Shown in pieces: positions 10,280 through 46,245 of a stretch of 64,000 nucleotides of DNA. Both the position numbers and the translations under genes were made by a program. The notes beneath the pieces are model-generated. The model did no database searches and had not been told where the DNA came from. It worked only from the letters and a program-made list of their open reading frames with translations. Numbering within the stretch: the first letter of the stretch is position 1; every line of letters starts with the position of its first letter. Source of the stretch: Steroidobacteraceae bacterium (lineage in GTDB: Bacteria > Pseudomonadota > Gammaproteobacteria > Steroidobacterales > Steroidobacteraceae); NCBI GenBank assembly GCA_049584935.1, contig JBAUYT010000090.1:147-64146 (forward strand). Direction: 5' to 3'.

Positions 10280-11734
10280 TCAGGGCGTCTCTGCAGACTC
10301 TGCCAGCAGTTCCCGCATCGCTTGATCGGCAGCCTCGAGCACCGTTTCCGTCGATCCCTCGCGGTACAGCGCCACGCGCACCGGATAGGCGCCCACTGCG
10401 TAATCCTCCCGCGGCGGCAGATAACTGGCGTAACCGTTGACGATATTGAGCACGGCGACGCTGTTGTGCGGAAATCGGCGGCGCAATTCCAGCTGAAACG
10501 CCGTGTGCATCTCGGCCGGGGTGCCGAGAATGAACGAGTCTCCGAGCTGCCAGATGGTGAAGGAGAAGTCGCCCTCCTTGCCATCGCCCACGGATTCCCG
10601 CGCCAGCAGGCGTCGCGTGAGCCGCTCGATCATGTAGCTCTCGCTGGCCTCTCGGATCTCACGACGCAGTTGCTCGCTGCTCGGCAGATCGGCAATCGCC
10701 AGGCGCACGGTCACGCGACGCGATTTCAGCGTGGTGCTCGACTTGTTCCGCTGCTCCTTCCAGATCGCAAGCGGGGTACCGGACTCTTCCACCCCAGCGT
10801 ATGTCAGAGACACCTGCGGCGGAAACATGGAGGTGAGCACCGACAGTGCCGCGTAACCCACTTCACGGCCGTTCTGGTCCGCGATGGCCGGATCCTGCTC
10901 AAAGCTGCGGCGCGGTGCCTGATTGCCCGACGCGCCGTGCAGGAACACGCACTCCCCGCCGCCGCACCCCGCCTCAACGGTCTCGCGCATGGCGCCGACG
11001 TAATCCGGTGAGATCAGGGTGTTGGCCCCACCGAGCGAAATCGGGTGGCAGGCGTAGTTCACGAACGTGCAGCGTATCTGCCCGGCCCCGTCGACCACAC
11101 GCCCCACCAGCAAGGTATCGTCGGCTTTCGCGGCCGGGTTCAGGCCGCAGAGGATTTGATCCCGGCCCGGTACCGGCAGCTCCCGGTTGAATGCCAGCCC
11201 GCAGTGACCCGCGCGCCACGTCAGGGTTGCCGGCGCCAGCGACGCGCGGGCGCCAGCGACCAGCTCGATGCAGGTCTGCTGCAGCATCTGGCGGTATTGC
11301 GGAATGAGGTGCCCGCCCGGCCGATCGGCAAATTCCAGAGCCGTTCGCGGTGCACTGTGCGTGTGCGAGGGGTGCAACATGAGCTCGTGCTCCTGAAGCC
11401 CCGTTCCTTCGAGAATTGCGGTCCGCAAATCGAGCTCGTCCGGCTTCGAGTTCCACCAGCTCAAATCCAGCGTCAGTAGCACCAGCTGCGTCGTGTGCTG
11501 GCTGTCGGCGAACACCACGCAGGTGGCCAGCAGTGGCTTGTGGATGCCGGTAGCGATATCGTGCTTGGAGCTGCCCCAGGTGCGCGCAAAAATCCCGGGA
11601 GGCGGGTTGATATTTGCTCGCGCCACCCCGACCGCTCCGGCAAACTCCGAGTCGCGCAACTCCAGGGTGTCCCGAGCCGCCACCGGACGACTCGCACCTG
11701 CCGCTGCACGCGGCACAGCACTGAGCTTGCTCAC
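10280..11734 (-). CDS. Ceramidase_alk-like hydrolase paralog P1 (cytoplasmic, short form)
   Basis: 484 aa with a GTG start. Blocks VGVARANINPPPGI, HPSHTHSAP, NYACHPISLGGANTLISPDYVGAMRE and FLHGASGNQAPRRS are shared with four other ORFs in the window. They resemble the metal-site blocks of the neutral/alkaline ceramidase N-terminal domain. No signal peptide is evident. Confidence 0.6.
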   Translation of the reverse strand: MSKLSAVPRAAAGASRPVAARDTLELRDSEFAGAVGVARANINPPPGIFARTWGSSKHDIATGIHKPLLATCVVFADSQHTTQLVLLTLDLSWWNSKPDELDLRTAILEGTGLQEHELMLHPSHTHSAPRTALEFADRPGGHLIPQYRQMLQQTCIELVAGARASLAPATLTWRAGHCGLAFNRELPVPGRDQILCGLNPAAKADDTLLVGRVVDGAGQIRCTFVNYACHPISLGGANTLISPDYVGAMRETVEAGCGGGECVFLHGASGNQAPRRSFEQDPAIADQNGREVGYAALSVLTSMFPPQVSLTYAGVEESGTPLAIWKEQRNKSSTTLKSRRVTVRLAIADLPSSEQLRREIREASESYMIERLTRRLLARESVGDGKEGDFSFTIWQLGDSFILGTPAEMHTAFQLELRRRFPHNSVAVLNIVNGYASYLPPREDYAVGAYPVRVALYREGSTETVLEAADQAMRELLAESAETP

Positions 11735-11782
11735 TGGTTCACCGGCGCAAGGCCTCGAGCTGATGCTCCCGCTGAGGGCTCT

Positions 11783-11847: not shown

Positions 11848-14313
11848 TCAGAAGCTCTTGGTGATCTTGATTCCGAAGGTCCTGGGCGCACTCGTGGTAA
11901 TGAACCGCTGTGTGCCTTGAGCGAAGGCTCCGGCGTAATTGCCGGGTCCCCCCGCGGCCTCGTACACGCCAAGCTCGGGAATGGTGTTCGTCAAATTGTT
12001 GACATACCACGTGTACTCCCAATTGTCGTGATCTGCCCAAAATCGCAGATTGGCCTCACCGTACCCGGGCAACAGGTAGTTGGGATCGATGGGTGTGTTG
12101 GTGTTGTTGAAATTCTGGGAACCAACGTATGCATAGTCAAGGCGCGCGGTCGTAGACCATTCCGCGCGAGGATTGAAGGTATAGGCCATTCCCGCCGACA
12201 CCTGAGTCTTGGGCGCGGACTGCAGCGGAGCCCCGACCACCCCAGTCGAGCCCTTGACCACCGATACGATCTTGCCGTCCGCGTACTGCCCGGTGACTTG
12301 AATTTGCCAGTGGTTGGTAAGCGCCGCCCTCACCTCAGCCTCGCTGCCATAAATTCGCGCCGCGCCCGCGTTGCTGACGAACGAGGCGCCGCAGCCGCTT
12401 ACTACTTGATCCAGCTGAATGGTGCTCTGAAGGTTGGTCCAATCCTCGCGGAAACCGCTGATGTTGGCGCTGATCCTGCCGTCATCCCAAGAGGTCTTCA
12501 GGCCGAGCTCGTAGTTCTTCAGGTCGTCGGATTTGAAATTTGCCGTAGAAGCCGCGGTAATGCCGAATATCTTCAACGCCGCGGCGCAACCTGGCGTGCT
12601 GTAATTACCGGTGGGATTGTCACCGCCGATGCGGAAACCCTCCGAGTAGGTCGCATAGAAATTGACGTCCTTGGTCACCGCGTAGGTCAAGGTGGCTCGA
12701 GGCACGGTCTTGCTCTCCTGCACCGGCTCGTGAATGACGCTGTTACCCGTGGGCGGGGCACTGGCGAAATAGTCGCTGAAGTCGATGCGCGTCGAGACCA
12801 CGCTCTGATTCGAGTAGCGCAGCCCGCCGGCGAGCGCCAGATCGGGTGTGAGGTGAAGGGTGACGTCTCCGAAAAAGGCGCGATCGGAGTAGGTGGAGGA
12901 ATACTGGCCGGACCAAACTGTGTCGGTGCCACTATTCGGCGCTGTCAGCGGAGCCACTGCGTCGGTGAGCCATGCTGGACCCACCGTCACATTACCAAAG
13001 GCGTCGCGCTCTTCCTTCTGAAAGAAGCCGCCGACGGTCCAGTCGAGACCCGATCCGCTCCAGAGAAGATCCTTCTCTTCCCCCTGCAGGCGCAGTTCCT
13101 GGCTCAGCAGGCGGGTGTCCACATTGAAGGTCAACGGCGCCGGACTCGGCAAGGGCACGATTCCGTTGCCACCGAGCGCCCCATAGGTGATTCCGGCAAA
13201 GTCGGTATTGTTGCTGTAGCTGCGATCGGTCCAGCCGGTAATCGAATGCAGCGACGCGAAGCCGAAATCGTAGGTCATATTCAGTGATGCCAATGAATAG
13301 TTCGTGTTCTCCGGCTGGAGCTGGAACTGATTGGCGAGCAGAGGGCTGCCGGACCCAGTGGATACGTCAGGTTCGTAGAACGGCTGCGAGTCAGTTGACT
13401 TGGCATCGTACAAGAAGGACGCAGTCGCCTCGAACTGGTCGTTCGGCTTGAACCTCAGTGCGACCTTGCCCCCAGCCGCCTGGCTCTTGTTGACGTCCTT
13501 GAGATACTCCCCATAGCCATAAGTTTGCGCCTGCTCGGAGTTGAATCCGACCAGCACGTTAGGACCGTAGACGTCTTTCGGATTGCCCGTCAGAAGATGG
13601 ACGTTGAGGTAGCCCGGATCCTGGGTTTCGTAAAACGAAAAGCGCAGCGCCAGGACGTCAGACAAGGGACTGTTCACAGTCAGGGAGGTGGTATAACCGA
13701 CGTTGTTGGCGCCCCAGCCGCTGTCGAGCACGGACAGGCCGCCGGATAAGTTCGCCGTGAATTCGTTGAACTGCGGCGCGTTCGGCACAATTTTAACCAG
13801 CCCTCCCATGGCGGCCGCACCGTATAGGGTACCTTGCGGCCCCTCCAGGACCTCGACGCGCTGCGTATCGACCAGCTGCGGATCCAGGGCGTACGCTGGC
13901 ACCTCGCCATAAACGTAGCCGGTAGTGGCCGTCGCGACGTTGGTTTCGAAATCGCCGAGACGGGAATTGGAGATGCCGCGGATGACGATGTTGGGACCGG
14001 AACGCTCGCCGCCCAACCCTTCACCGCTGTAGATAAGCCCCGGTACGAATTTCGCGTAGTCGGTCAGATCCTGCAGCCCCTGCTGCTCGAGATCGGCACC
14101 GCTGAATACCGCCATCGTGACCGGTACGTCCTTGGCATTTTCCTCGCGCTTCTGCGCGGTCACTATGACCTCCTCCAGCTGCGGGCCTTCCGCGCCCGCG
14201 ACCTGCGCATTGGCAGATCCATGCGGCGCCAGCAGGCCGACGGCCGTACAAGTCACCAGCAACCCCGGAAGTCCTCGAACCGGTGCACCACTTTCGGACG
14301 ATATCGCGCTCAT
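11848..14313 (-). CDS. TonB-dependent outer-membrane receptor
   Basis: 821 aa. It has a signal peptide ending ANAQ and the plug region EEVIVTAQKREENAKDVPVTMAVF. It also has RVEVLEGPQGTLYG and the C-terminal ...GIKITKSF (terminal Phe). A strong GGGAGGA SD precedes the ATG. Confidence 0.92.
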   Translation of the reverse strand: MSAISSESGAPVRGLPGLLVTCTAVGLLAPHGSANAQVAGAEGPQLEEVIVTAQKREENAKDVPVTMAVFSGADLEQQGLQDLTDYAKFVPGLIYSGEGLGGERSGPNIVIRGISNSRLGDFETNVATATTGYVYGEVPAYALDPQLVDTQRVEVLEGPQGTLYGAAAMGGLVKIVPNAPQFNEFTANLSGGLSVLDSGWGANNVGYTTSLTVNSPLSDVLALRFSFYETQDPGYLNVHLLTGNPKDVYGPNVLVGFNSEQAQTYGYGEYLKDVNKSQAAGGKVALRFKPNDQFEATASFLYDAKSTDSQPFYEPDVSTGSGSPLLANQFQLQPENTNYSLASLNMTYDFGFASLHSITGWTDRSYSNNTDFAGITYGALGGNGIVPLPSPAPLTFNVDTRLLSQELRLQGEEKDLLWSGSGLDWTVGGFFQKEERDAFGNVTVGPAWLTDAVAPLTAPNSGTDTVWSGQYSSTYSDRAFFGDVTLHLTPDLALAGGLRYSNQSVVSTRIDFSDYFASAPPTGNSVIHEPVQESKTVPRATLTYAVTKDVNFYATYSEGFRIGGDNPTGNYSTPGCAAALKIFGITAASTANFKSDDLKNYELGLKTSWDDGRISANISGFREDWTNLQSTIQLDQVVSGCGASFVSNAGAARIYGSEAEVRAALTNHWQIQVTGQYADGKIVSVVKGSTGVVGAPLQSAPKTQVSAGMAYTFNPRAEWSTTARLDYAYVGSQNFNNTNTPIDPNYLLPGYGEANLRFWADHDNWEYTWYVNNLTNTIPELGVYEAAGGPGNYAGAFAQGTQRFITTSAPRTFGIKITKSF

Positions 14314-14360: not shown

Positions 14361-14372
14361 TGTAACGTTACA
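14361..14372. promoter_or_regulatory. Class-A operator candidate, perfect palindrome TGTAACGTTACA
   Basis: Lies 48 bp upstream of the TonB-receptor start, in the divergent control region 14314..14660. Confidence 0.6.
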
Positions 14373-14454
14373 AGTGACTTGCAAGCAGTGCGGCGGAGAA
14401 AAATAACAACAGCTGTTCGGAATCTTGACGCTTCTACGCGCTTCTTCTAGCACT

Positions 14455-14466
14455 TGTAACGTAACA
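14455..14466. promoter_or_regulatory. Class-A operator candidate TGTAACGTAACA (1 mismatch)
   Basis: Second copy in the same divergent intergenic region. Confidence 0.5.
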
Positions 14467-14495
14467 TCTTTGAACTGTCAACGGTCCGATGCGGC

Positions 14496-14521
14496 AATCG
14501 AGCCGGTGGGCCGGCTCGATT
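14496..14521. repeat. Perfect 11-bp inverted repeat AATCGAGCCGG-tggg-CCGGCTCGATT
   Basis: Read directly from the sequence. It lies between class-A operators 2 and 3 and has no flanking T/U tract. Confidence 0.5.
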
Positions 14522-14592
14522 GATGCGTGCGCGCAACGACCCGCGCGCCGCGCGCCTTGGTCTGCTGCAGGTTGCGACCCGGCCAGCCGTAA

Positions 14593-14604
14593 TGTAACGT
14601 TACA
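14593..14604. promoter_or_regulatory. Class-A operator candidate, perfect palindrome TGTAACGTTACA
   Basis: Lies 57 bp upstream of the aminotransferase ATG at 14661. Confidence 0.6.
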
Positions 14605-14660
14605 CCACCCGGGCTCGAGAACAATATGGCGTGTACGCCCGGACGCAGGGTGGTCGAAAC

Positions 14661-16007
14661 ATGGTCGAAATCGTGAGCGGCAAGCTGGCCTCCCTGCTGG
14701 CGCATAACGGCGCCTATATTCCCGGGGGGATCAGTTCGACCAACCGCATCATTGACCCGCCCATCGCCTTCGTCAAAGCGCAGGGCGCTTATCTGTGGGA
14801 CATCGACGGCAAGCGCTACATCGACTATCACGCGGCCTTTGCGCCGCACTTTCTCGGCCACAACTTCGGCCCCATCAACGATGCGGTCATCAACGTGCTG
14901 CGCAGCGGCGAGAGCCTCTACGGGGCGGGTCCCACCGTACTGGAAGGGCGGCTGGCGGAGTTGCTTTGCAAGAACGTGCCGGCCGTCGAGAAACTCTGCC
15001 TGTTGAACACCGGCAGCGAGGCCACGGCGTTGGCAATACGCCTGAGCCGTGCAGTCACGCAACGCCAGCACTTCATCGTGGTACAGGGCGGCTACAACGG
15101 TAATCACGATGAGCTGGCGTGCAATGTCTTCAATACGCTGGCGGAAATCGGACCGCGGGTCTCGCCGGGCGAATACCCGCTCAAGCCCTCGGGTGCCGGC
15201 ACTACCCTGACCAGTACCCGCTTCGTGCATCCGATCAACTTCAATGATCTCGAATCGGTTCGCTACCTCTGCCGTCGGTTCCCGATTGCGGCAATGATCA
15301 CCGAACCGGTGCTGCAGAATGTCGGCGTGGTGCGGCCGCGGGACGGTTATCTGCAGGGCCTGCGAAAGCTGGCCGATGAGTTGGGGTTCCTGCTCATTTT
15401 CGACGAGGTCAAGACCGGCTTTCGCCACGCCCTGGGCGGCTATAGCGAAGTCTCAGGGGTGCTCCCGGATCTGGTCACCTACGGCAAGGCGGTCGCCAAT
15501 GGCTTTCCAATGGCGATCATGGGCGGCAAGCGGCAGTACATGGACTACGTGATGCACCCGGACCCTGCCAAGCGCCCGCTGGTGGCGGGAACCTACAATG
15601 GACATCCGGTGGCGGTGGCGGCCGCCATAGCCACGATCGAATACCTGTTGGCGAATCGAACCGCGGTGTATGAGAACAGCGAGAGGCTGGGCCAGCAAAT
15701 GGAAGCCGGGTTGCGGCGCATATTTGCGGCGCACGGCATTTCGGCAAGCGTCGCGCGCCAGGGCTCGGCCTTCTCCTACTACCTGATGCCCGAGGCCCCG
15801 GTCGACTTCCACGATATTCTGGAACATCATGACTTTGAGCGCGATGTCGCTCTGCGCCGCGCACTCAACGAGCAGGGTGTATTTTTTGTGCCCATCGCTA
15901 CCAAGCAGTGCTCGATTTCGGCCGCACATACGGCGGACGACATCCAGTTTACCCTGCAGCAAGTCGAGCGAGCCGTTGCCAGCGTCTGGGCCAAGGCGCG
16001 TAACTGA
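14661..16007 (+). CDS. Class-III PLP aminotransferase (glutamate-1-semialdehyde aminomutase-like)
   Basis: Contains IPGGISSTNR (compare PGGVNSPVR) and the LIFDEVKTGFR block, plus TYGKAVANGFP with the PLP lysine. ATG 14661 gives a family-typical N-terminus. Confidence 0.85.
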   Translation: MVEIVSGKLASLLAHNGAYIPGGISSTNRIIDPPIAFVKAQGAYLWDIDGKRYIDYHAAFAPHFLGHNFGPINDAVINVLRSGESLYGAGPTVLEGRLAELLCKNVPAVEKLCLLNTGSEATALAIRLSRAVTQRQHFIVVQGGYNGNHDELACNVFNTLAEIGPRVSPGEYPLKPSGAGTTLTSTRFVHPINFNDLESVRYLCRRFPIAAMITEPVLQNVGVVRPRDGYLQGLRKLADELGFLLIFDEVKTGFRHALGGYSEVSGVLPDLVTYGKAVANGFPMAIMGGKRQYMDYVMHPDPAKRPLVAGTYNGHPVAVAAAIATIEYLLANRTAVYENSERLGQQMEAGLRRIFAAHGISASVARQGSAFSYYLMPEAPVDFHDILEHHDFERDVALRRALNEQGVFFVPIATKQCSISAAHTADDIQFTLQQVERAVASVWAKARN

Positions 16008-16014
16008 GCGCAGC

Positions 16015-16926
16015 TTGAATGCTCTCAAGCGGATATTTCTGAGACATGGGCCGATCACGGTTGGGCTCGCTCCGGAATTCGGGGCGCTCACCCGGTTCGA
16101 CGTGCAGGTGGGGGATACCCTGGTCGATGTGTTGCGGCCGGCCATCGATCGACCGCTCGCGGGGCCCTGGGCACTGGGGGCATCGTGCTTTCCACTGACG
16201 CCCTATGGCGGTCGCTTGCGCAATGGCCGCTTCCGCTTCGAGGGCCGCGAGCTGACCTATCCTCTCAATGCATTGCCGGAGAAGCACTCCTCGCACGGTG
16301 ATGGCTGGACTCGCCCGTGGGTTTTGACGCAGCTGGATCGTCGCAGCGCCACCATGACGCTCTCGTACGATCCGCAGGCGCCCCTGAAGTATGCATGCAC
16401 GCAGACGGTGAGCGTCGACCCGACGCAGGTAAACGTCGCCATGGTGCTCGGCAATCTCGACTCGCAGCGCATCCCGGTGGGGGTTGGACTTCATCCCTAC
16501 TTCGCTAACCGCGTCGATGCCGTCCTGGCAGCCGAGCTTCCGACGCAATGGGGCTGGGATGATGAGTTGATGCCGCTCGAGCGCGGCCCGAACCCGGACG
16601 CCGACGGCTTCCGCCGCGGTAAGGCGGTGATGGATCTGCCCGTGGCGGCCGAATTCGACGGCTGGGACGGCCAGGCCCGTATCCAATGGCCGGCACGGGG
16701 CCTCAGCATCCAGCTGACGACCGCACCGCGCATGCAGCACGCGGTTCTGTGGGTTCCGTCAGGGAAGGATTTCTTCTGCTTCGAGCCCACCAGCCACGCG
16801 ACCGATGGCCTCAATGCCCGCTCCGGCCATCCGGCCGGCGAGCATTTCGTCGTGCTCGAGCCCGGCCAGGTGTTCGAGCAGCGCATCACGTTCTCCGTGG
16901 TGCCGAGCGCTGGACCCCGGCAATGA
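16015..16926 (+). CDS. Aldose 1-epimerase family protein
   Basis: Blocks HGDGW, GLHPYF and FCFEPTSH are typical of aldose epimerase/mutarotase-like proteins. The only start-like codon after the upstream stop is TTG 16015, so the start is uncertain. Confidence 0.7.
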   Translation: MNALKRIFLRHGPITVGLAPEFGALTRFDVQVGDTLVDVLRPAIDRPLAGPWALGASCFPLTPYGGRLRNGRFRFEGRELTYPLNALPEKHSSHGDGWTRPWVLTQLDRRSATMTLSYDPQAPLKYACTQTVSVDPTQVNVAMVLGNLDSQRIPVGVGLHPYFANRVDAVLAAELPTQWGWDDELMPLERGPNPDADGFRRGKAVMDLPVAAEFDGWDGQARIQWPARGLSIQLTTAPRMQHAVLWVPSGKDFFCFEPTSHATDGLNARSGHPAGEHFVVLEPGQVFEQRITFSVVPSAGPRQ

Positions 16927-17864
16927 CATCCAGCGAGGCGATTGAGCTGCGCATCGACTGCCGCAATGAATTGGGCGAAACGCCGCTCTGGTGTGCCGAG
17001 GCATCGACCCTCTACTGGATCGACGTCACCGCACCCGGCCGCGTGTTCTTTTGGAACACAGGCACCGACGAGGTCGATTTTTGGGATTTCCCCGAACTCG
17101 TGACCGGCATCGACCTTACGGATGATGGCGGCCTGCTGGTACGCGGCACCAACGACATCATTCGTTTTGATCTCGTCACGCGCCGGCAGCAACGGCTGTT
17201 TACGCTGCCCGACGTCTGCGGCTTGAGCCGATTCAATGACGGACACTGTGATCGCGCAGGCCGGCTCTGGGTCGGTACCATGTCCAATAATTTGCACCCT
17301 GGCGCTACGGGCATCGCCGCCTCCGCTGGGCAGATCTGGTGCATCGGCGATGGCAGGGCGAGCTCGATCGATGCGCACTTGGGCTGTCCGAATGCAATCT
17401 GCTGGAGCCCCGACTACCGCACCTTCTATATCGCCGATTCCGCCAACGGCTGGCTCTATGCTCACCGGTTCGATGACGACACCGGCACGCTCATGCAGCG
17501 TCGACCCTTCTTCAGCAGCAGCACGCTCGGCATACCGGATGGGGCGGCCGTGGACCAGGAAGGCTACCTCTGGAATGCGCGCTGGGACGCGGGCATGCTG
17601 ATCCGCATCAGTCCGGCCGGGCGCCTGGATCGCAGCGTGCGCCTGCCGGTTTCACGGCCCACGGCCTGCTGCTTCGGTGATGATGATTTGCGGACGCTGT
17701 ACATCACCACGGCCCGTTACGGCCTGACGCCCGAGCAACTGGCGACGGAGCCCCTCTCCGGTGGCGTGTTTTCACTGCGCGTCGATATCGCCGGTCTGCC
17801 GCTGCCGGCTTTCCGAGCCTCTGCCGCTCCGATTCAACACTATTACGGTGCTGCCCTGCCATGA
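16923..17864 (+). CDS. SMP-30/gluconolactonase/LRE family protein (sugar lactonase-like)
   Basis: Contains NELGETPLW...[19 protein letters not shown] and PNAICWSPD, then the [16 protein letters not shown] propeller repeats. ATGA overlap with the upstream gene. Confidence 0.85.
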
Positions 17865-19039
17865 AGATAACCGCCATTACGCCACTGATCTGTCACGCGC
17901 GCATGCGCAACTGGATCTTCGTCAAGGTCGAGACCGACCAGCCTGGCCTGTTCGGCTGGGGCGAGGCCACGCTCGAGTGGCATACCCGCGCGGTCGTCGG
18001 CGCACTCGAAGATCTGGCCACGCTGCTGATTGGCGAGGATCCGCGACGGATCGAACACCTCTGGCAGATGATGTTCCGCCAGCACTTCTGGCACGGCTCC
18101 GGCATCGTCCGCTCCACCGCCATCTCGGGCATTGATATCGCCCTGTGGGATATCGCCGGGAAGCTCCTGAACGTGCCCTGTCACCGTCTCTGGGGCGGTC
18201 GCGTACGCGACTACATTCGTCTCTACTGTCATCTCGGCGGCGGACGCATGGAGGCCTTCTATGAAACCGCTGCGGAGGACGCAGAGCGCTTCGCGGACCT
18301 GGCCCGCCAGGCGGTTGCCAACGGCTATTCGGCATTCAAATCGATGGCCGTGCCGCCCACCAGTGTGCTGGAAGGGCTGGGGCCTGTTCGAGCGGCCGAG
18401 CAGGCCGTGGCCAAAATGCGCGAAGCGGTTGGGCCACAGATCGACATCATGGTGGATTGTCACGCCCGCCCCTCGCCGACCATGGGCCTGCAGTTCGCCA
18501 AGGCACTGGAGCCCTATCGGCTCTACTTTCTCGAGGAACCCTGCTGGCCGGAATCCATCGTCGCGCTGGCCAGCATCAAGACCGCGGTCTCTACTCCGAT
18601 TGCCACCGGCGAGCGTCTGACGGCGCTGAATCAGTTCCGGGACCTGTTCGCGGCCCGCGGCTGCGATGTGGCGCAGCCCGACATCACGCATTGCGGCGGC
18701 CTGTCCTCGGCGCGGAAGATCGCGGCCCTGGCAGAGGCCTATCGTATCGCGCTGGCACCCCACAATCCGCAGGGACCCATCAGCACTGCGGCATCGTTCG
18801 AGTTTGGATTTTCGCAGCCCGATTACGCGATCTGCGAAACCGTCAGCGAGGATGTCCCGTGGCGCGCCGACGTGGTACGCGATTTCCATGCCATCGATCG
18901 CAAGACGCGCACGGTAACGGCGAGCGAGAAAGCCGGCCTGGGCGTGGAGGTCAATGAAGCAGCCGTCGCCGAGCATCCGTTCCAGCAGGAGTTGCCGCAG
19001 CGGGTCTTCTATAAGGATGGCGCGGTGGGCGACTGGTGA
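17861..19039 (+). CDS. Enolase-superfamily dehydratase, D-galactonate dehydratase-like (MR/MLE-1)
   Basis: [41 protein letters not shown] closely follows the galactonate/mannonate dehydratase subgroup N-terminus. It also has the DIALWD, MVDCH, FLEEP and QPDITHCGG blocks. ATGA overlap with the lactonase gene. Confidence 0.85.
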
Positions 19040-19060: not shown

Positions 19061-19072
19061 GAAAACGTTTCC
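19061..19072. promoter_or_regulatory. Class-B LacI-type operator candidate GAAAACGTTTCC (1 mismatch to GGAAACGTTTCC)
   Basis: Lies in the 60-bp gap between the dehydratase stop and the P2 start, 28 bp upstream of ATG 19100. Confidence 0.5.
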
Positions 19073-20506: not shown

Positions 20507-20574
20507 CGCCAGCGCGCGCCCCGCACTGCCGGCCTGCGGTTCATTGATTTCGTCGCAGGCGCATGGCAAAGTAT

Positions 20575-20586
20575 GGAAACGTTTCC
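20575..20586. promoter_or_regulatory. Class-B operator candidate, perfect palindrome GGAAACGTTTCC
   Basis: Lies in the 134-bp gap after P2, 55 bp upstream of ATG 20641. Confidence 0.6.
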
Positions 20587-36620: not shown

Positions 36621-37813
36621 ATATTCATCCCCTGGCGAGCGCACTGGCACCGGATCTGACCGCCTGGCGCCGCGCGCTGCACGCCCATCCGGAACTCGGG
36701 TTCGAGGAGCGGTGGACTTCGGATTTCGTGGCCGAGAAGCTCTCCGGCTGGGGCATCCCGATCCAACGCGGCCTCGCGGGCACAGGCGTGGTGGCTACTT
36801 TGAACGGTCGGGGCCATGCGAGCTGCGCCATCGGGCTGCGGGCCGATCTGGACGCACTGCCGATCCAGGAACTCAACGAATTTGCGCATGCCTCGCAACA
36901 TCCGGGGCGCATGCACGCATGCGGTCACGATGGGCATACCGCGATGTTATTGGGCGCCGCCTATTGTCTGGCCCGCGATCCCAGCTTCTCCGGTACCGTT
37001 CATTTCATCTTTCAGCCGGGGGAGGAGGGCTGCGGCGGCGCCGAGCGCATGGTCAAGGAAGGTTTGTTCGAGCAAAACCCGTGTAACGCAGTGTACGGCC
37101 TGCACAACTGGCCGGCGCTCAAATTTGGAATGATGGGATTGCGCGTCGGACCGCTGCTGGCCTCAATGGACCTGATAGAGATTCTCGTCCGGGGCCGGGG
37201 CGGCCACGGCGCCCTGCCCCACACGACCATCGACCCCATCGTGACCTCAGCGCACATCGTGACAGCCTTGCAGACCCTGGTCAGCCGCTCCACCAAGCCG
37301 ACCGATGCGGCCGTTGTAAGCATCACCTGCATACAGGGAGGCACGGCGCATAACGTCATCCCTGAAACCGTTCGCATGCTCGGCACCGTCCGCAGTTTCA
37401 CGCCAAGCGTCCGCAATGCGCTGGAAGCGGGCATCAGACAGATCGCGGAAGGTGTGGCTCGCAGTTTCGGCGCATCTGCGACCGTGCAATACACCCGTCT
37501 GGCCTCCGCCGTGGTGAATTCGGCTGACGAAGCACGCCTGGCGGCGAGTGCAGCTGCCGCGGTGCTTGGGGCAGATCAGGTGCTGGACCCGATGGAACTG
37601 GTAATGGGATCCGAAGATTTCTCGTTCCTGGTTGCAGACCGCCCCGGTGCCTATGTGTTCCTGGGCCAGGCCGACGCTCCGAATCCGAGCATGATCCACA
37701 ACGCGACCTATGACTTCGACGACAAGCTGCTGCCGATCGGCGTCAGCTACTGGATCAAACTGGTCGAGCAGGCGCTGCCGTTGTCTTCCCGCCAGCGGCC
37801 GATCGCGCCGTGA
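36617..37813 (+). CDS. M20D-family amidohydrolase (N-acyl-amino acid / hippurate hydrolase-like)
   Basis: Contains LHAHPELGFEE, LRADLDALPI, MHACGHDGH and FQPGEEG. ATGA overlap with P4. Confidence 0.88.
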   Translation: MNIHPLASALAPDLTAWRRALHAHPELGFEERWTSDFVAEKLSGWGIPIQRGLAGTGVVATLNGRGHASCAIGLRADLDALPIQELNEFAHASQHPGRMHACGHDGHTAMLLGAAYCLARDPSFSGTVHFIFQPGEEGCGGAERMVKEGLFEQNPCNAVYGLHNWPALKFGMMGLRVGPLLASMDLIEILVRGRGGHGALPHTTIDPIVTSAHIVTALQTLVSRSTKPTDAAVVSITCIQGGTAHNVIPETVRMLGTVRSFTPSVRNALEAGIRQIAEGVARSFGASATVQYTRLASAVVNSADEARLAASAAAAVLGADQVLDPMELVMGSEDFSFLVADRPGAYVFLGQADAPNPSMIHNATYDFDDKLLPIGVSYWIKLVEQALPLSSRQRPIAP

Positions 37814-38898
37814 CCGGTTCCGTTCAGAGCCCCGCCGGCAGCCTCGCCTTCAGCGGCGCGGTGGGTGTGACGGTACCGGCCACGCAGGTCCTCTGGTATG
37901 ACCGACTGCTCGATCCGGCGCGCTTCCCTTCGGAAGGCTATTGGGCTTTCTGCCGCTTCGAAAGCGACGCCATTCCAGCCGTGCGGTTGGGCTTTCAGCG
38001 CGGCGGTTTCAACGCGGGGCCGAAACCGTGCAAGCTCAATCCCTCCTATCTGCAGCTGCATCTGGAAGTGATGACGCGCGAGGGTGCGCTGCTGTGGCTG
38101 CCGTCCGGGGTTTATCCGGCCGAACGGGTGGAGTCGGCACCCACCGCATTCAATATCCGGCTCGCAGACACCGACCATGAGATCTTCGAATTCAGTGGCT
38201 GGCCGCAAATCCAGTGCCGGTTCCGTTCCGAGGACCGGTATCTCGAAGTGGATCTGGGCTTCGATCTGGGCAGCGTGACGGTGCTACCCGACGGCATCCT
38301 GCCGCATTGCGTGTTCGCCATGTTCGAGTCCATGGGCAATGTCCAGGGTACCATTCGTTCAGGCGGGCAAGTCACTGCCGTGCGCGGCAAGGCCTTCGTC
38401 GATCACACACGGATCATCGAGCAGCGAAACCCCGTCGTCGCACGACAGATGTCGTTGTATACGACCCTGTACTTCGAGGATGGCAGCGGCCTGTATGGCT
38501 ATTACGCCGTCGATGCAAACGATCGACCGATTGCAGAGTACTGCTTCGGGGTCTTTCTGAATCCGGACGGACAAGGTCGATTTTTCGCCGACGCGACTTT
38601 AACGCAGCTGGCCCTGGATGAGGACCGCATCGCCAAAAGCTGGCGACTGCGGTATCGAATGGATGACGGCGCCGTCGAGATAGCGATCACTGTCAGGCCG
38701 CAGCCGATCCTGCGGTGTTGGGGATCGCCCACGGCACCTCAACGACGCGACCAATTCAGCATTTTGCCGCTGGTCCTGGACAGCCTCGCGCAATTTGTCG
38801 GCGCCGATGGCACCAACAGAACACTGCGAGGCATCGGCCTGTCCGAGTATTACGACCGGGAACTGTGGCCGATCGATCCGCTGGCGCGCCTGGATTGA
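37810..38898 (+). CDS. Hypothetical protein, no recognisable motif
   Basis: 362-aa ORF with codon usage like its neighbours. Its GTG start overlaps the M20 stop (GTGA), so it is probably translationally coupled. I cannot assign a family by eye. Confidence 0.6.
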   Translation: MTGSVQSPAGSLAFSGAVGVTVPATQVLWYDRLLDPARFPSEGYWAFCRFESDAIPAVRLGFQRGGFNAGPKPCKLNPSYLQLHLEVMTREGALLWLPSGVYPAERVESAPTAFNIRLADTDHEIFEFSGWPQIQCRFRSEDRYLEVDLGFDLGSVTVLPDGILPHCVFAMFESMGNVQGTIRSGGQVTAVRGKAFVDHTRIIEQRNPVVARQMSLYTTLYFEDGSGLYGYYAVDANDRPIAEYCFGVFLNPDGQGRFFADATLTQLALDEDRIAKSWRLRYRMDDGAVEIAITVRPQPILRCWGSPTAPQRRDQFSILPLVLDSLAQFVGADGTNRTLRGIGLSEYYDRELWPIDPLARLD

Positions 38899-39797: not shown

Positions 39798-39809
39798 TGT
39801 AACGTCACA
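39798..39809. promoter_or_regulatory. Class-A operator candidate TGTAACGTCACA (1 mismatch), abutting a TATAAT box
   Basis: Lies in the 83-bp divergent region between the PhyH and NHL genes. TATAAT at 39793..39798 shares its final T with the first base of the site. Confidence 0.5.
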
Positions 39810-40868: not shown

Positions 40869-40880
40869 TGTAACGTTACA
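40869..40880. promoter_or_regulatory. Class-A operator candidate, perfect palindrome TGTAACGTTACA
   Basis: Lies 107 bp upstream of the hydantoinase A ATG at 40987. Confidence 0.6.
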
Positions 40881-40986: not shown

Positions 40987-43071
40987 ATGAGAATCGGCAT
41001 TGATGTCGGTGGAACCTTTACCGACATCGTCGCCATCGCGGACGACGGCGAAGTGGCGATCAGAAAAGTGCCATCCACGGTGGATGACTACAGCCGCGCA
41101 ATTGCCGAGGCGTTGCCGCTGCTGTTCGCAGGGCAAAAGTGCACCGGCCGGTCCGTTCGCGAGGTGCTGCACGCCACCACTGTGGCGACCAACGCCATAC
41201 TTCAGCACGTCGGCGCCAGGACCGCATTGATTACCACCCGGGGATTCCGCGATGTGCTCGAGCTGCGGCGCATGCGGATGCCAGAAATGTACAACTGGAA
41301 CTGGGACAAACCATCGGATCTGATCGAAAGGCACCTGCGCTTTGAAGTCACCGAGCGTATCGATGCGCGCGGACAAGTGGCTGTGGCTCTGGACCAGGCA
41401 GAACTCGCGGCGATCATCGAACGACTGACCGCTGCAAAGGTCGAATCGATAGCCGTATGTCTGCTGAACTCGTATGTCAATTCGGCGCACGAGCGCATGG
41501 TGGCGCAGGCGCTGGCAGAGGCACTGCCGGGAGTGGCGATTTCGATTTCGAGCGAGATTCTGCGGGAGGTAAAGGAATACGAACGTACCGCAACGGTCGT
41601 GGTCAATGCCTACGTACTGCCACTGGTTAAGCGCTACATCGATGGGCTCGCGAGCTCGCTGAGCACCATCGACATAGCAGCGCCGCTGATGATCATGCAA
41701 TCCAACGGCGGCATGATGACGGCTGGAGCGTGTGCGACGCGGCCCGCCTATATGATCGAGTCCGGTCCCGCGGCGGGCGTGATTGCCGCGCACGCCGTGG
41801 CGCTCGCGGAAAATGTGCCCGATATGATCACATTCGACATGGGCGGGACCACGGCAAAGGCCTCCATTATCGAAAATGGTCAAATGAGCAGCGCCTCCGA
41901 ATACGAGGTGGGGTCCTCCCTTTCCGCAATCAGCCGACTGATCAAGGGCGGCGGTCATCTCATCCGCGTGCCGGCGATCGATATCGCAGAGGTGGGTGCC
42001 GGCGGCGGCAGTGTCGTCTGGTTGGATGCGGGCGGTGCCATGCAAATCGGGCCCATGAGCGCCGGAGCGTCACCCGGACCGGTCTGCTACGGCATCGGGG
42101 GAACACGTGTTACCACTACGGATGCCAATCTGGTTCTGGGATACATCAATCCAGCGGGACTCGCGGGCGGCGGCCTGATGGTCAATCGCACCGCCGCTCA
42201 GGATGCCATCCGATCATTGGTGGCACAGCCATTTGACATGAGTGTCGAAGATGCCGCCTATGGCATCCATCTGCTCGCAAATTCGAACATGATGCGCGCG
42301 GTGCGCAGTGTCTCGACCGAACGGGGACGGGATGTACGAAAGTTTTCGCTGCTGGCCTTCGGGGGCAACGGCCCCGTCCACGGCTGCCAGCTGGCCCGGT
42401 CCCTGGGGATGAGGGAAGTTATCGTACCCGCCCACCCCGGACTATTCAGCGCCATGGGTTTGCTGTCAGCCAAGGTCGAACATCACACCGTTGCGACATT
42501 CTTCCATCAGACTCGCCAGCTGAGCCTGGAGGCGCTGAATGCCGCCTATGAAACGCTCCAAACTGAAGTCATGGACCTGCTCAGGCGCGAAGGATTTTCC
42601 GACCGGAACATTAGAGTTACGCGGTTGGCCGACGTACGTTATGCGGGTCAGTCCTTCGAGCTGACGGTGCCGGTGCCAGCGGGTGAACTCGACACAGAGG
42701 CTGTACGAGCCATCGAGCGCGCCTTTGCGGCGGAGCATAAGCGCACCTACGGACATCACGGCGGCGACGGCGAGGCCTACGCGCTGACGAATTTGCGGGT
42801 TATTGGCGCGGTAGCGGCTGGACGTGAGGGATTGCGAGCCCGCAAGTCCACCAGCGACGGCCGCCGCCGTGGCAGCCGTAGCGCATATTTTGGCGACACT
42901 TCAGGTTGGATCGAAACGCCGGTCATAGGCCGCGGCGACCTGTCGGCGAACGTCGCCCACGGACCGCTGCTGATCGACGAGTACGATTCCACGACGGTCA
43001 TACCACCACACTGCACCGCGCGCCTGGATTCCCTGAATAATGTTCGCATCAATATTCAAGGCCGGTCATGA
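40987..43071 (+). CDS. hyuA: Hydantoinase/oxoprolinase A-type subunit (HyuA family, ATP-dependent)
   Basis: MRIGIDVGGTFTDIV..., the internal DMGGTTAK block and a size of about 690 aa are characteristic of the family. Confidence 0.9.
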   Translation: MRIGIDVGGTFTDIVAIADDGEVAIRKVPSTVDDYSRAIAEALPLLFAGQKCTGRSVREVLHATTVATNAILQHVGARTALITTRGFRDVLELRRMRMPEMYNWNWDKPSDLIERHLRFEVTERIDARGQVAVALDQAELAAIIERLTAAKVESIAVCLLNSYVNSAHERMVAQALAEALPGVAISISSEILREVKEYERTATVVVNAYVLPLVKRYIDGLASSLSTIDIAAPLMIMQSNGGMMTAGACATRPAYMIESGPAAGVIAAHAVALAENVPDMITFDMGGTTAKASIIENGQMSSASEYEVGSSLSAISRLIKGGGHLIRVPAIDIAEVGAGGGSVVWLDAGGAMQIGPMSAGASPGPVCYGIGGTRVTTTDANLVLGYINPAGLAGGGLMVNRTAAQDAIRSLVAQPFDMSVEDAAYGIHLLANSNMMRAVRSVSTERGRDVRKFSLLAFGGNGPVHGCQLARSLGMREVIVPAHPGLFSAMGLLSAKVEHHTVATFFHQTRQLSLEALNAAYETLQTEVMDLLRREGFSDRNIRVTRLADVRYAGQSFELTVPVPAGELDTEAVRAIERAFAAEHKRTYGHHGGDGEAYALTNLRVIGAVAAGREGLRARKSTSDGRRRGSRSAYFGDTSGWIETPVIGRGDLSANVAHGPLLIDEYDSTTVIPPHCTARLDSLNNVRINIQGRS

Positions 43072-44861
43072 GTCCTGCGCAACGAGGCCCCGTTGATCCA
43101 ATCACGCTGGGTTTGATTCGCAACTTTCTCAGTAGCGTCGCCGATGAAATGGCGAACACCATTATTCGTACGGCATATTCGACCATCGTGCGTGACTGCA
43201 TGGACTTCTCCACCGGCCTGTGCGATCGACACGGCAATACCGTTGCCCAGGGACTGACCATACCGTTCCAGCTCGGCGGCATTCCATTTGCACTGGAAGC
43301 GACGCTGCGCAAATACCGCGGCAATATTCATCCCGGCGATATCTTCATAATCAACGACCCGTTCGAAGGCGGAATTCACATTCCAGACGTGTTTCTGTTC
43401 GAGCCGGTGTTCTATCAGTCACAGTTGATAGGCTTCTCCGCGGTCGTCTCGCACCATCTCGACTTGGGGGGTCGCGTACCGGGCAGTGTAGCCTGTGACA
43501 ATACCGAGATATTTCATGACGGCTTGAGGATTCCGCCACTGAAGCTCTATGAGCGGGGCGTCCCGTGCGAAGCCCTATTCGGCATAATTGAAAAGAACAT
43601 CCGGATTCCGGTCATGACTTTGGGGGATATTCGCTCTAATCTGGCCGCCTGCCGCACCGGCGCCAGGGGGCTGGTAGAGCTGGCCGAGCAATACGGCCTA
43701 CCGACCCTGGAGACTTACTTTGACGAGTTGCTGAACTACACCGAACGTCTGGCCAGAGCCGAGATCCGTGCGTGGCCCGACGGCGACTACCACTTTACCG
43801 ACTACCTCGACAATGACGGCGTCGATCCGGAGCCGATTCCGTTATCGGTCAAGCTCACCATTGATGACGATTCCATCGCCATAGACTTCGAAGGCACCTC
43901 GCCGCAGGTGCGAGGCGGAATCAACAGCCCCTGGGCATATACGGTGTCATGCTGTGCCTACGCGGTACGCAGTGTCATGCGAGCAGACATCCCTAATACG
44001 TCTGGATTATTGCGACCGCTGAAGGTCATCGCAGCAGAGGGTCTTATCGTAAACCCAAGGATGCCGGCGGCTTCGGGCATGCGAGGTATCGTTGGTTTTC
44101 GGTTGGCGGATGCATTATTGGGGGCTCTGGCTCAAGCACTGCCCGATAAGGTGCCGGCCGCTGGCGAAGGAGGCAATTCGCTCGTGATCATCGGCGGTAG
44201 CAAGCCGGGCGGGTCGGAGCGCTTCATCATGTTCGACATGGTATGTGGTACCTGGGGCGCAAGGCCGAGTAAGGATGGCAACGACGGACTGACGAACCCA
44301 GGATCGGTGATTTCAAATATCCCAACGGAACTGATGGAGCTTGACTATCCGATCCGTCTCAACCGGTATTCGCTGGAAAATGATTCGGGGGGAGCAGGAA
44401 AGTATCGGGGCGGTCTGGGAGTGACGCGCGAATGGGTCTATCTTGGGGACGGTCCGGCGAGCTTGAGTGTCAGAACGGACCGCCGCGATTTTCCACCCTA
44501 CGGCCTGGCGGGCGGTGGCAAGGGCGCAGCTTCGAGCCTGATCGTGAATCCGGGGACCGCACGGGAGCGCATCCTCGACACCAAGGTCACGACCACGCTT
44601 CAACCCGGCGACGTGCTGCGCCACACGCAGGCGGGCGGCGGCGGCTGGGGCGATCCGCGCGAGCGCGACACCGCAGCCGTGATACGCGATGTGCTCAATG
44701 AGAAGGTCTCGATCGAGAAGGCGCGAGAACTCTACGGCGTAGTCATCGATCGCGATACGATGCATGTAAACGTGGCGGCGACGCTCGCCTGTCGGCAGCA
44801 AGAACATGCGCCAGCAGCCGGCCTGGCCGGCGCGACGCAGACGGAGAGACACGATGGCTGA
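43068..44861 (+). CDS. hyuB: Hydantoinase/oxoprolinase B-type subunit (HyuB family)
   Basis: Contains DPITLGLIRNFLSSVADEMANTIIRTAYSTIVRD, FIINDPFEGGIHIPD and GGGGWGDP. ATGA overlap with hyuA. Confidence 0.9.
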   Translation: MSPAQRGPVDPITLGLIRNFLSSVADEMANTIIRTAYSTIVRDCMDFSTGLCDRHGNTVAQGLTIPFQLGGIPFALEATLRKYRGNIHPGDIFIINDPFEGGIHIPDVFLFEPVFYQSQLIGFSAVVSHHLDLGGRVPGSVACDNTEIFHDGLRIPPLKLYERGVPCEALFGIIEKNIRIPVMTLGDIRSNLAACRTGARGLVELAEQYGLPTLETYFDELLNYTERLARAEIRAWPDGDYHFTDYLDNDGVDPEPIPLSVKLTIDDDSIAIDFEGTSPQVRGGINSPWAYTVSCCAYAVRSVMRADIPNTSGLLRPLKVIAAEGLIVNPRMPAASGMRGIVGFRLADALLGALAQALPDKVPAAGEGGNSLVIIGGSKPGGSERFIMFDMVCGTWGARPSKDGNDGLTNPGSVISNIPTELMELDYPIRLNRYSLENDSGGAGKYRGGLGVTREWVYLGDGPASLSVRTDRRDFPPYGLAGGGKGAASSLIVNPGTARERILDTKVTTTLQPGDVLRHTQAGGGGWGDPRERDTAAVIRDVLNEKVSIEKARELYGVVIDRDTMHVNVAATLACRQQEHAPAAGLAGATQTERHDG

Positions 44862-46245
44862 TCGAACCAATGATCGACTGCGGCACCCGGAATTTCGCGG
44901 CCGCATAGGCGTCGCCAGGGCCGAGATCACCCCACCGATTGGCATCTATTCCCGCACCTGGGGCAGCGCCAGGCACGATCAGGCGGAGGGCATTCATCGC
45001 CCGCTACTGGCCACCTGCCTCAGGTTTCAAGACGCCCGCGGCGGCGACGAACTGATCCTGATAACGCTCGATGTCATGATTTTCTGGCAGGAAGAAGCCG
45101 ATCGGATCCGCGCAGCCATTCTCCAGCAGCGAGGCCTCAAGCCTCATCAGCTGATCCTGCACCCCTCCCACTCGCACGGCACGCCGTTCTACCTGCGCCG
45201 GCAAATGGACCGCCCGGGCGGAGATCTGATTGCGCCGTACCTGGCATCGATACCGGCGCGCTGCTGCTCGCTCATAGATGAAGCCCGGAAATCTGCGCGC
45301 GATGCCATCCTCACCTGGGCTTACGGCCGTTGTGGCCTGGCATTCAATCGCGATGCCATCGATCCGGCGAGCGGTCGGGACGTCTGCGGTCTCAATTTGG
45401 CGGTAGCAGCGGATAGCACCGTGCTGGTTGGACGCATTGCGGCCCCCGACGGCACGGTGCACGCAACCATCGTCAACTACGCCTGCCACCCGGTCTCGCT
45501 CGGTGGCGGCAATCGTCTGCTCTCGCCGGACTACATCGGCGCCATGCGCGAAGTCGTGGAACAACAGACCGGGGGTGCCATCTGCGTCTTCTTTCAGGGG
45601 GCCGCCGGGGATGTCACCCCTCGACGTAGCTACGAGTCGGATGTTGAGGCTGCCGATCAAAATGGGCGCGAGCTCGGCTACGCGGCGCTCTCGACGCTGA
45701 CGGCCATGTTCCCCCCCGGCCAGCAGCTCGTATACCAGGGAATCGAGGAATCCGGGACGGCCCTCGGCATCTGGCGTCTTCGGCCCAAAGACCGTGTGAG
45801 CACGCAGCTTTCAGCCGAGCGCATCACAGCGCGGCTCCCCATACGGGAAATGCCGGAGCGCCAGGAACTCGAACAGCAACTCGCGCAGAGCCACGATCGG
45901 GTGGAGATGGAGCGTCTGGAGCGGGCGCTCGATCGGCGCAAGCTCGTGGGCGATGGCAAGGAAGGGGACTTATCCTGTACCGTCTGGCGCCTCGGGGAAT
46001 CGTTCCTGGTCGCGACGCCGGCCGAACCGTACACGCAGTTCCAGATCGCGCTGCGACAGCAGTTTCCGGACGCGGCCGTGGCCGTGCTAATGGCCTCTGA
46101 CGGCGCCAAGAACTACCTGCCTCTACCCGCGGCCTTCCAGCGCGATGTCTATCAGGTGCGGGTATCTCTTTATGAGGCTGGCGCGCTCGAGCGGGTCACC
46201 GCACAGGTCGCGCAAGTGATTGAGGCTTCGCGTTTGACCGCTTGA
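44854..46245 (+). CDS. Ceramidase_alk-like hydrolase paralog P5
   Basis: Contains IGVARAEITPPIGI, HPSHSHGTP, NYACHPVSLGGGNRLLSPDYIGAMRE and FFQGAAGDVTPRRSY. ATG 44854 follows GGAGAG and overlaps the hyuB stop by 8 nt. Confidence 0.6.
   Translation: MADRTNDRLRHPEFRGRIGVARAEITPPIGIYSRTWGSARHDQAEGIHRPLLATCLRFQDARGGDELILITLDVMIFWQEEADRIRAAILQQRGLKPHQLILHPSHSHGTPFYLRRQMDRPGGDLIAPYLASIPARCCSLIDEARKSARDAILTWAYGRCGLAFNRDAIDPASGRDVCGLNLAVAADSTVLVGRIAAPDGTVHATIVNYACHPVSLGGGNRLLSPDYIGAMREVVEQQTGGAICVFFQGAAGDVTPRRSYESDVEAADQNGRELGYAALSTLTAMFPPGQQLVYQGIEESGTALGIWRLRPKDRVSTQLSAERITARLPIREMPERQELEQQLAQSHDRVEMERLERALDRRKLVGDGKEGDLSCTVWRLGESFLVATPAEPYTQFQIALRQQFPDAAVAVLMASDGAKNYLPLPAAFQRDVYQVRVSLYEAGALERVTAQVAQVIEASRLTA

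Follow-up and report, generated by a model that had tools for sequence, protein, structure and literature searches.

Five short homologues of the neutral-ceramidase catalytic domain among transport and catabolic genes of a Steroidobacteraceae bacterium

Introduction

What does a ceramidase-like hydrolase do in a bacterium that encodes it five times, each time among different transport and catabolic genes? The question is raised by a 64,000-nucleotide stretch of a Steroidobacteraceae metagenome-assembled genome (MAG), here called the window. From the letters of this stretch alone, the original prediction had picked out five paralogous open reading frames (ORFs), P1 to P5, as short cytoplasmic relatives of neutral ceramidase. 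Our analysis finds that all five share the fold of the ceramidase catalytic domain and conserved residues at its zinc and catalytic positions, and that their conserved neighbours are mostly enzymes of sugar acids and amines. On balance we favor a role as cytoplasmic zinc amidohydrolases for polar amides that stem from sugar acids or amino sugars, a substrate class suggested by gene context; our confidence in any single substrate is far lower.

Five intact, collinear paralogues

The five ORFs are found where they had been placed (Table 1) and all are intact, with lengths of 462–484 amino acids. When each copy is searched against the window with tblastn, exactly five copies and no fragments are recovered, with pairwise E-values from 1e-28 to 0. 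The predicted end-to-end collinearity is seen in a MAFFT alignment, which has 71 invariant columns. P3, P4 and P5 are mutually 60–64% identical, in keeping with the earlier estimate of well over half. P1 is less similar (48–50% identity to these three) and P2 is distant (26–31% identity to the other four), both as anticipated. The shared sequence blocks HPSH(T/S)H(S/G)xP (VTHNHAGP in P2), NYACHP(V/I)SLGG(A/G)NxL(I/L)SPDY(V/I)GAMRE (TYGCHPTFLGPGNTLISPDY in P2) and F(F/L)(H/Q)GxxG(D/N)xxPRRS are present as described. The N-terminal block ITPP(V/I)GI holds for the paralogues generally, but not for P1, which has GVARANINPPPGI (INPPPGI).

Compared with orthologues that are 88–93% identical, P3, P4 and P5 have dN/dS ratios of 0.08–0.16 (0.10–0.16 for P3 alone); by this measure they are functional genes under purifying selection. 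A reading of the paralogues as pseudogenes or decaying copies was dropped because the catalytic residues are invariant and dN/dS is about 0.1. P2 is 100% identical to NCBI WB646_05510 from a Steroidobacteraceae MAG, which is annotated as “hypothetical protein.” With starts at 19100 and 44854, the lengths of P2 and P5 agree with those of orthologues called by NCBI or ENA. P1 can be aligned to the other copies (tblastn) only from its residue 18, and so the gene may really begin near 11683 and encode a protein of about 467 amino acids.

A ceramidase catalytic domain without its tail

Homology to the N-terminal domain of neutral/alkaline ceramidase had been proposed, and Pfam, a profile search of the PDB and Foldseek all agree on it. 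All five proteins match the Pfam family PF04734 (Ceramidase_alk), P1 and P4 above the gathering score of 32.1 bits and P5, P3 and P2 below it (scores in Table 1); the match extends over roughly the first half of the model and no further. Searched against the PDB, a profile built from the paralogues retrieves the neutral ceramidase of Pseudomonas aeruginosa (PaCDase; 2ZWS, E-value 3e-18) and the human enzyme (4WGK, 1.2e-11). The AlphaFold model of P4 (pLDDT 95.9, pTM 0.94) matches only 2ZWS, 2ZXC and 4WGK when compared with the PDB by Foldseek (E-values from 2e-28 to 2e-26; TM-score 0.69, query-normalized), the next matches being noise. P1 to P5 are homologues of the neutral-ceramidase catalytic domain.

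Are the residues of the active site retained? In the profile alignment to 2ZWS, the ceramidase residues H97, H99, R160, H204, E411, Y448 and Y460 align with residues of the family. From structural work on PaCDase we take these positions to be the zinc ligands (His, His, Glu, Tyr) and the catalytic His, Arg and Tyr. The counterparts of H97, H99, R160, H204, E411 and Y448, which are H106, H108, R166, H212, E391 and Y421 in P4, are invariant in 82 of 82 aligned sequences, and the expected conservation of zinc-site and catalytic residues is thus upheld by both alignments. At the position of Tyr460, P1, P3, P4 and P5 have Tyr, whereas P2 and its clade have Met. Homology suggests that water would be activated by a zinc ion with two His, one Glu and one Tyr as ligands, and that the attack on the amide carbonyl would be aided by the Arg and by the latter of the two His in HxH.

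The characterized neutral ceramidases (PaCDase, 2ZWS/2ZXC; human ASAH2, 4WGK) have about 650–690 amino acids and the architecture PF04734 plus PF17048. P1 to P5 have the catalytic-domain fold in common with them but are only about 465 amino acids long, and both the C-terminal immunoglobulin-like domain and any signal peptide or membrane anchor are missing, as the original prediction had claimed for the tail domain and the signal peptide. None of the five matches PF17048 at an E-value of 1 or less, and all stop where the PaCDase catalytic domain stops, at about residue 470. Localization was judged from hydropathy: the 12-residue maximum within the first 45 residues is 0.5–1.8, with no hydrophobic N-terminal core. 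The N-termini are hydrophilic, and in P2 to P5 only 11–18 residues precede the first conserved motif. P1 to P5 thus appear, from their sequences, to be single-domain, cytoplasmic homologues of the ceramidase catalytic domain.

Could they nevertheless be true ceramidases, or other lipid-amide hydrolases, that act on intracellular sphingolipids or N-acyl lipids? The five have the fold of neutral ceramidase and its residues at the zinc and catalytic positions, some P2 homologues carry the JGI label “neutral ceramidase,” and the AttH-like partner of P4 (see below) belongs to a fold taken to act on hydrophobic substrates. However, identity to the ceramidases is only about 15%, and against the NCBIfam equivalog NF041649 “neutral ceramidase,” with its cutoff of 1200 bits, the best score is 16 bits (P1) and P2 to P5 give no match. 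The C-terminal domain and signal peptide are absent, the 64-kb window has no fatty-acid or sphingoid-base catabolic genes, and the partners over about 90 loci are enzymes of sugar acids or amines; the setting is one of sugar-acid and amine catabolism, not of lipid metabolism or virulence. We regard a lipid substrate as highly improbable, and judging from this context ceramides are probably not what P1 to P5 hydrolyze.

A large family of short proteins

In a database clustered at 90% identity, the homologues of P4 number more than 3,155, and nearly all of them have either no name or one taken from the Pfam domain. A profile search of 1.84 billion representatives at 50% identity gives 7,368 matches at E ≤ 1e-30, rising to 19,809 when the limit is E ≤ 1e-10; the family has at least 7,368 clusters at this identity. 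Almost all of the best 150 profile matches are 440–490 amino acids long. Members also occur on plasmid or megaplasmid records of Rhizobiales, Agrobacterium, Pantoea, Enterococcus, Bacillus and haloarchaea. The claim that the short form has no assigned substrate stands, as neither databases nor full-text literature yielded a characterized short member. “Undescribed” is apt for the function of these proteins but not for their existence, since NCBI lists [quoted passage not shown] Thousands of prokaryotic genes are labeled “neutral ceramidase” or by the name of its N-terminal domain, and annotation pipelines of the KEGG type take such labels to mean sphingolipid metabolism. The labels would be misleading if the substrates of the short form were soluble amides from sugars.

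Gene neighborhoods

In the window, as predicted, each of the five is accompanied by a transporter or partner enzymes of its own (Table 1). Which of these partners are conserved? Our survey of gene context consisted of a BLASTP census of 79 metagenome loci with the window proteins and took in about 90 other loci overall. The recurrent partners are a DgoD-like dehydratase, a GSAM-like class-III aminotransferase, a sodium:solute symporter (SSS, Pfam SSF), a TonB-dependent receptor, a LacI-family regulator and the hydantoinase/oxoprolinase pair HyuAB. Close relatives retain the synteny of the window. In 14 of the 31 loci of our group 1, many of which are on short contigs, an orthologue of the dehydratase MR1 (69–75% identical) is found no more than 5 kb from a ceramidase-like gene with an identity of only 35–40%. 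By these comparisons MR1 is the most conserved partner of the ceramidase-like family. The aminotransferase AT3 and the symporter both lie within 5 kb of a ceramidase-like gene in nine of ten group-2 loci; homologues of AT3 (51–72% identical) adjoin ceramidase-like genes in many loci, and those of LacI_a (62–80% identical) go with P1-type loci. The adjacency of a ceramidase-like gene and HyuAB is seen again in loci L004, L007 and L061, the last of these an independent lineage.

Annotation of representative loci with Pfam yields three types of operon. In L078, annotated with Pfam, the order is MR1, a DHDPS-family aldolase, a major facilitator superfamily (MFS) transporter and the ceramidase-like gene; L072, L077, L079 and L082 resemble it by ORF size only (MR1, about 310 amino acids, about 430 amino acids, ceramidase-like gene). 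A longer type consists of AT3, MR1, a short-chain dehydrogenase/reductase (SDR), the ceramidase-like gene, SSF, M20, Gfo/Idh/MocA and FAH genes, beside a heparinase-II-like lyase and a lactonase. Another has an OprB porin, two pyrroloquinoline quinone (PQQ) glucose/sorbosone dehydrogenases, SSF, the ceramidase-like gene, AT3 and a TonB receptor. Among distant members, those on plasmids of Devosia, Nitratireductor and Microvirga are found with LacI next to the gene order NagB-like, SIS, amidohydrolase, ceramidase-like, sugar ATP-binding cassette (ABC) transporter, and that of Haladaptatus lies among Gfo/Idh/MocA genes, a glucose 1-dehydrogenase, RidA and a heparinase II/III protein. None of 17 further neighbor families (OngC-like, RidA, FAH, Gfo/Idh/MocA, HepII, NagB-like, SIS and others) is broadly recurrent, and we therefore regard them as lineage-specific additions.

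The minimal operon of MR1, aldolase, MFS transporter and ceramidase-like gene needs only a step that yields the free aldonate, and the ceramidase-like proteins might on this ground be hydrolases of aldonolactones or sugar-acid lactams, not of open-chain amides, that supply the adjacent dehydratase with free sugar acid. Lactone-producing PQQ aldose dehydrogenases flank group-2 loci, and HyuAB is a recurrent neighbor; the HyuAB family includes ATP-dependent lactam-opening enzymes such as 5-oxoprolinase. However, the ceramidase fold is not known to have any characterized chemistry but amide hydrolysis, the P2 operon already has an SMP30 lactonase gene two genes before P2, and the recurrent aminotransferase would be left unexplained. 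We consider such an activity quite improbable.

Copy number and arrangement vary among related genomes. In L004, a closed genome of 4.05 Mb, three ceramidase-like genes stand in direct tandem (7196–11383), followed by a DUF2817 (M14-like) gene, and a fourth copy adjoins an MR1 orthologue in a region that also has a TonB receptor, LacI and HyuAB; the copies in the window, in contrast, are dispersed. In L023, L025 and L026 an extra ceramidase-like gene, 56% identical to P5, follows the MFS_a transporter gene (window region 5360–7629). In L025 its place is between MFS_a and LacI_a, two genes that are only 20 nucleotides apart in the window; the window thus seems to have lost a sixth paralogue, or never to have acquired it.

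A LacI-type operator

Are the five copies independent of one another? The palindrome TGTAACGTTACA, which has a central CG, occurs six times in the window with at most two mismatches, against 0.43 sites expected; none of 100 shuffled sequences reaches six, and six of the six sites are intergenic (Table 1). The exact 12-mer is present at equivalent promoters in eight related loci. The sites between the divergently transcribed P1 and P2 operons are kept at equivalent positions in L022, L025, L045 and L068, the site upstream of HydA is kept in L002 and L018, and L026 has an exact copy upstream of MFS_a and its ceramidase-like gene. Because this operator stands at all three promoters and is conserved in related loci, P1, P2 and P5 are probably controlled together as a single LacI-type regulon, for which LacI_a is the candidate repressor. 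The description of five different operons is correct in that each has its own partners. Their independence does not hold, as the operator ties P1, P2 and P5 into a probable single regulon. A second LacI-like palindrome, GAAAACGTTTTC or G(A/G)AAACGTTT(T/C)C, was rejected as not significant (three sites against 0.87 expected; five of 100 shuffles reach three).

A second regulator gene, LacI_b (26729–27799, minus strand), has an intact frame that is 98% identical to its orthologue in L002. At the position of the orthologue's ATG start it reads AGG, and no ATG, GTG or TTG precedes the helix-turn-helix (HTH). This could reflect loss of the start codon, a non-canonical start or an error in the MAG assembly; if the loss is real, the neighbors of LacI_b, possibly including the P3 operon, could be derepressed.

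Proposed function

How might the five proteins work together with their neighbors? Candidate substrates are N-acyl aminoaldonates (of the N-acetylhexosaminate type), aldonoyl amides and related lactam-derived amides. These would be taken up by TonB-dependent receptors and then by SSS, MFS or EamA carriers. After hydrolysis, the acid and amine products would pass to MR1, AT3 and the SDR dehydrogenases; other lineages would add an aldolase of the DHDPS type. The paralogues would split different amide partners among them; P3 and P4, which head separate operons with a transporter or a deacylase, probably differ from the others in the amides they take, though these would be related.

Among published systems, the nearest in logic, by analogy, is the ong cluster of Pseudoalteromonas prydzensis, which serves the use of N-acetyl-D-glucosaminic acid (GlcNAc1A) in the oxidative chitin pathway (Jiang et al. 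2022, PMC9537276). Its route leads from a TonB receptor and an SSS symporter through cytoplasmic de-N-acetylation (OngB) and deamination (OngC) to 2-keto-3-deoxygluconate (KDG) metabolism, and its authors liken the pathway to D-amino-acid catabolism (Jiang et al. 2022, PMC9537276). P1, too, is flanked by a TonB receptor and an SSF symporter, and the proposed scheme has the same logic of a cytoplasmic de-N-acylase, an amine-removing enzyme and a 2-keto-3-deoxy sugar-acid end. A homologue of OngB and the D-aminoacylases (matches to 3GIP at 1.4e-58 and to PpOngB, 9KB1, at 1.6e-42) is encoded beside P5 and not in the P1 or P2 operon. Unlike in ong, the hydrolase of the P1 and P2 operons has the ceramidase fold, not the amidohydrolase fold of OngB. 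Amine removal would fall to a transaminase resembling GSAM and D-phenylglycine aminotransferase, the dehydratase is DgoD-like, and the regulator is of the LacI rather than the RpiR family. BLASTP of the window ORFs with an OngC-like protein (from L007) and a RidA (from L006) as queries gave no match to the OngC-like fold-type III pyridoxal-phosphate deaminases or to RidA; KdgK was not searched for.

D-aminoacylases and N-acyl-D-glutamate deacylases of the amidohydrolase superfamily (1M7J, 3GIP) are also cytoplasmic, metal-dependent N-deacylases of polar N-acyl amino acids, but their TIM-barrel fold is unrelated to the ceramidase fold of P1 to P5.

Several observations weigh against a role in sugar-derived amides. 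The P4 operon encodes no sugar enzyme (its products are an AstE/AspA deacylase, an M20 peptidase and the AttH-like protein), the separate lactonase and the separate D-aminoacylase encoded nearby could fill the proposed roles, and OngC-like and RidA-like matches are missing, as described above. Distant P2-like members lie near peptide-type ABC transporters (SBP_bac_5), DAO, creatininase and amidases, and members in Agrobacterium and Pantoea lie near a prolyl oligopeptidase and a methyltransferase.

Might the five then act as amidases on N-acyl amino acids or on small peptides, perhaps with D-amino acids, and serve the catabolism of amino-acid derivatives together with AstE/AspA, M20, the D-aminoacylase and HyuAB, the sugar enzymes being functionally unrelated neighbors? 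The makeup of the P4 operon, with P4 between AstE/AspA and M20, would fit, as would the D-aminoacylase homologue beside P5 and HyuAB directly upstream of it. The transporters of distant members are of the peptide/opine type, with RidA among the other neighbors; a PTR2 transporter and DUF2817 flank the tandem copies of L004, and a D-Ser-dehydratase-like gene lies near a P4 orthologue. However, the partners most conserved across phyla are the galactonate-dehydratase-like enzyme, the DHDPS aldolase, lactonase, SDR and transporters and regulators of the sugar type, and the regulators are of the LacI family. The two readings also merge in part, aminoaldonates being themselves D-amino-acid-like (PMC9537276). 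We consider amino-acid or peptide amides unlikely as the substrates, and continue to prefer amides derived from sugar acids or amino sugars.

More tentatively, the short family as a whole may consist of unrecognized cytoplasmic de-N-acylases or amidases for polar amides of sugar acids that form, together with the aminotransferase, the dehydratase and the ATP-dependent HyuAB enzymes, an undescribed and widespread pathway for aldonoyl amides or oxidized amino sugars; in this MAG and close relatives of it, the pathway would be under LacI control. If this is true, the neutral-ceramidase fold has a new, non-lipid function, and a sizeable undescribed part of amino-sugar and sugar-acid catabolism is served by a family that spans bacteria and haloarchaea, possibly a route by which the carbon and nitrogen of amino sugars are turned over in soil and water. 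With five paralogues that have distinct partners, a defined operator, a probable shared repressor and conserved MR1 and AT3, the locus is a good entry to the function of the family.

Other features of the window

Table 1. Ceramidase-fold genes, their neighbors and palindromic sites in the window
Feature	Position	Strand	Remarks
P1, ceramidase-fold amidohydrolase (putative)	10280-11734	-	484 aa as called; PF04734 32.3 bits, E 5.5e-8
P2, divergent ceramidase-fold paralogue	19100-20506	+	468 aa; directly after MR1; PF04734 27.3 bits, E 1.9e-6
P3, ceramidase-fold amidohydrolase (putative)	30326-31714	-	462 aa; between MFS and EamA transporter genes; PF04734 27.9 bits, E 1.3e-6
P4, ceramidase-fold amidohydrolase (putative; the modeled one)	35223-36620	+	465 aa; PF04734 37.4 bits, E 1.6e-9
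P5, ceramidase-fold amidohydrolase (putative)	44854-46245	+	463 aa; start overlaps HydB stop by 8 nt; PF04734 31.5 bits, E 1e-7
P1 operon		-	TonB receptor, P1, SSS symporter, SDR, LacI
LacI-family regulator LacI_a	6541-7629	-	LacI HTH + Peripla_BP_3
SDR dehydrogenase SDR_a, glucose-1-dehydrogenase-like	7642-8433	-	PRK07231 234.8 bits (cutoff 215)
Sodium:solute symporter (SSF/SSS)	8440-10176	-	downstream of P1
TonB-dependent outer-membrane receptor	11848-14313	-	upstream of P1; also in related loci L022, L025, L030, L045
P2 operon		+	AT3, aldose epimerase, SMP30 lactonase, MR1, P2, MR_MLE, SDR, E1 alpha/beta, MR_MLE, E2
Class-III aminotransferase AT3, GSAM-like	14631-16007	+	GSAM 1e-67; D-phenylglycine aminotransferase 1e-43
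Aldose 1-epimerase and SMP30/gluconolactonase genes	15829-17864	+	ORF calls overlap, so true starts are later
MR1, enolase-superfamily dehydratase, galactonate-dehydratase-like	17861-19039	+	PRK14017 (NCBIfam “galactonate dehydratase”) 318.6 bits (cutoff 311)
Rest of P2 operon: MR_MLE, SDR, 2-oxoacid dehydrogenase E1 alpha, E1 beta, MR_MLE, E2	20563-26764	+	
P3 neighborhood		-	MFS, P3, EamA
EamA transporter	29379-30263	-	downstream of P3; syntenic in L009, L010, L019, L020, L027
MFS transporter	31730-32992	-	upstream of P3
P4 operon		+	AstE/AspA deacylase, P4, M20, 362-aa protein; 4-nt overlaps
AstE/AspA-family deacylase	34074-35159	+	first gene of P4 operon; syntenic in L009, L010, L012, L018, L020
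M20 peptidase and 362-aa AttH-like protein	36617-38898	+	translationally coupled to P4, 4-nt overlaps
P5 operon		+	HyuA, HyuB, P5, SDR; convergent D-aminoacylase/OngB-family gene
Hydantoinase/oxoprolinase A and B (HyuA/HyuB family; HydA, HydB)	40987-44861	+	directly upstream of P5
SDR directly after P5 (+), then D-aminoacylase/OngB-family amidohydrolase (-, 47034-48626)	46246-48626		
TGTAACGTTACA, three copies	14361, 14455, 14593 (14361-14604)		divergent TonB-P1/AT3-P2 promoter region
TGTAACGTTACA, exact copy	40869-40880		107 bp upstream of HydA-HydB-P5
TGTAACGTTACA, 1 mismatch	39798-39809		between PhyH and NHL genes
TGTAACGTTACA, 1 mismatch	5252-5263		between amino-acid permease and MFS_a genes
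Second LacI-like palindrome, G(A/G)AAACGTTT(T/C)C (not significant)	19061-19072, 20575-20586, 33958-33969		flanks P2; upstream of AstE-P4 operon

The 362-amino-acid protein that ends the P4 operon (37810–38898, plus strand) has no match in Pfam, NCBIfam or the PDB sequences, and its approximately 200 homologues are all annotated as hypothetical. Its AlphaFold model (pLDDT 93.6) matches 2ICH by Foldseek (2e-10) and has the double beta-barrel of AttH, kievitone hydratase, 25-phosphosteroid lyase and Diels-Alderase.

The MR_MLE genes of the P2 operon were also considered as N-acylamino-acid racemases or dipeptide epimerases, and this was dropped, their best matches being acid-sugar dehydratases. 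One of the enolase-superfamily genes, MR3 (24585–25751, plus strand), matches 3NO1, 4H83 and 3MSY very closely (E-value 1e-152), structural-genomics entries with a generic family name only, and is inserted between the E1 beta and E2 genes of the 2-oxoacid dehydrogenase complex, an odd arrangement.

A 570-amino-acid protein resembling the C-terminal part of arabinose isomerase gave no match in a PDB sequence search. The region 48747–56267 encodes further hydrolase and transport proteins: a TIM barrel resembling xylose isomerase, an ABC permease of the amino-acid type with SBP_bac_3 proteins, two adjoining CE4 polysaccharide-deacetylase-like proteins and an MmgE/PrpD protein. Between the P3 and P4 operons lies a fragment of a DUF772 transposase (193 amino acids; 33047–33628, minus strand), which is found at the same position, with 57–96% identity, in at least eight related contigs and is unusually stable for a relic of a mobile element.

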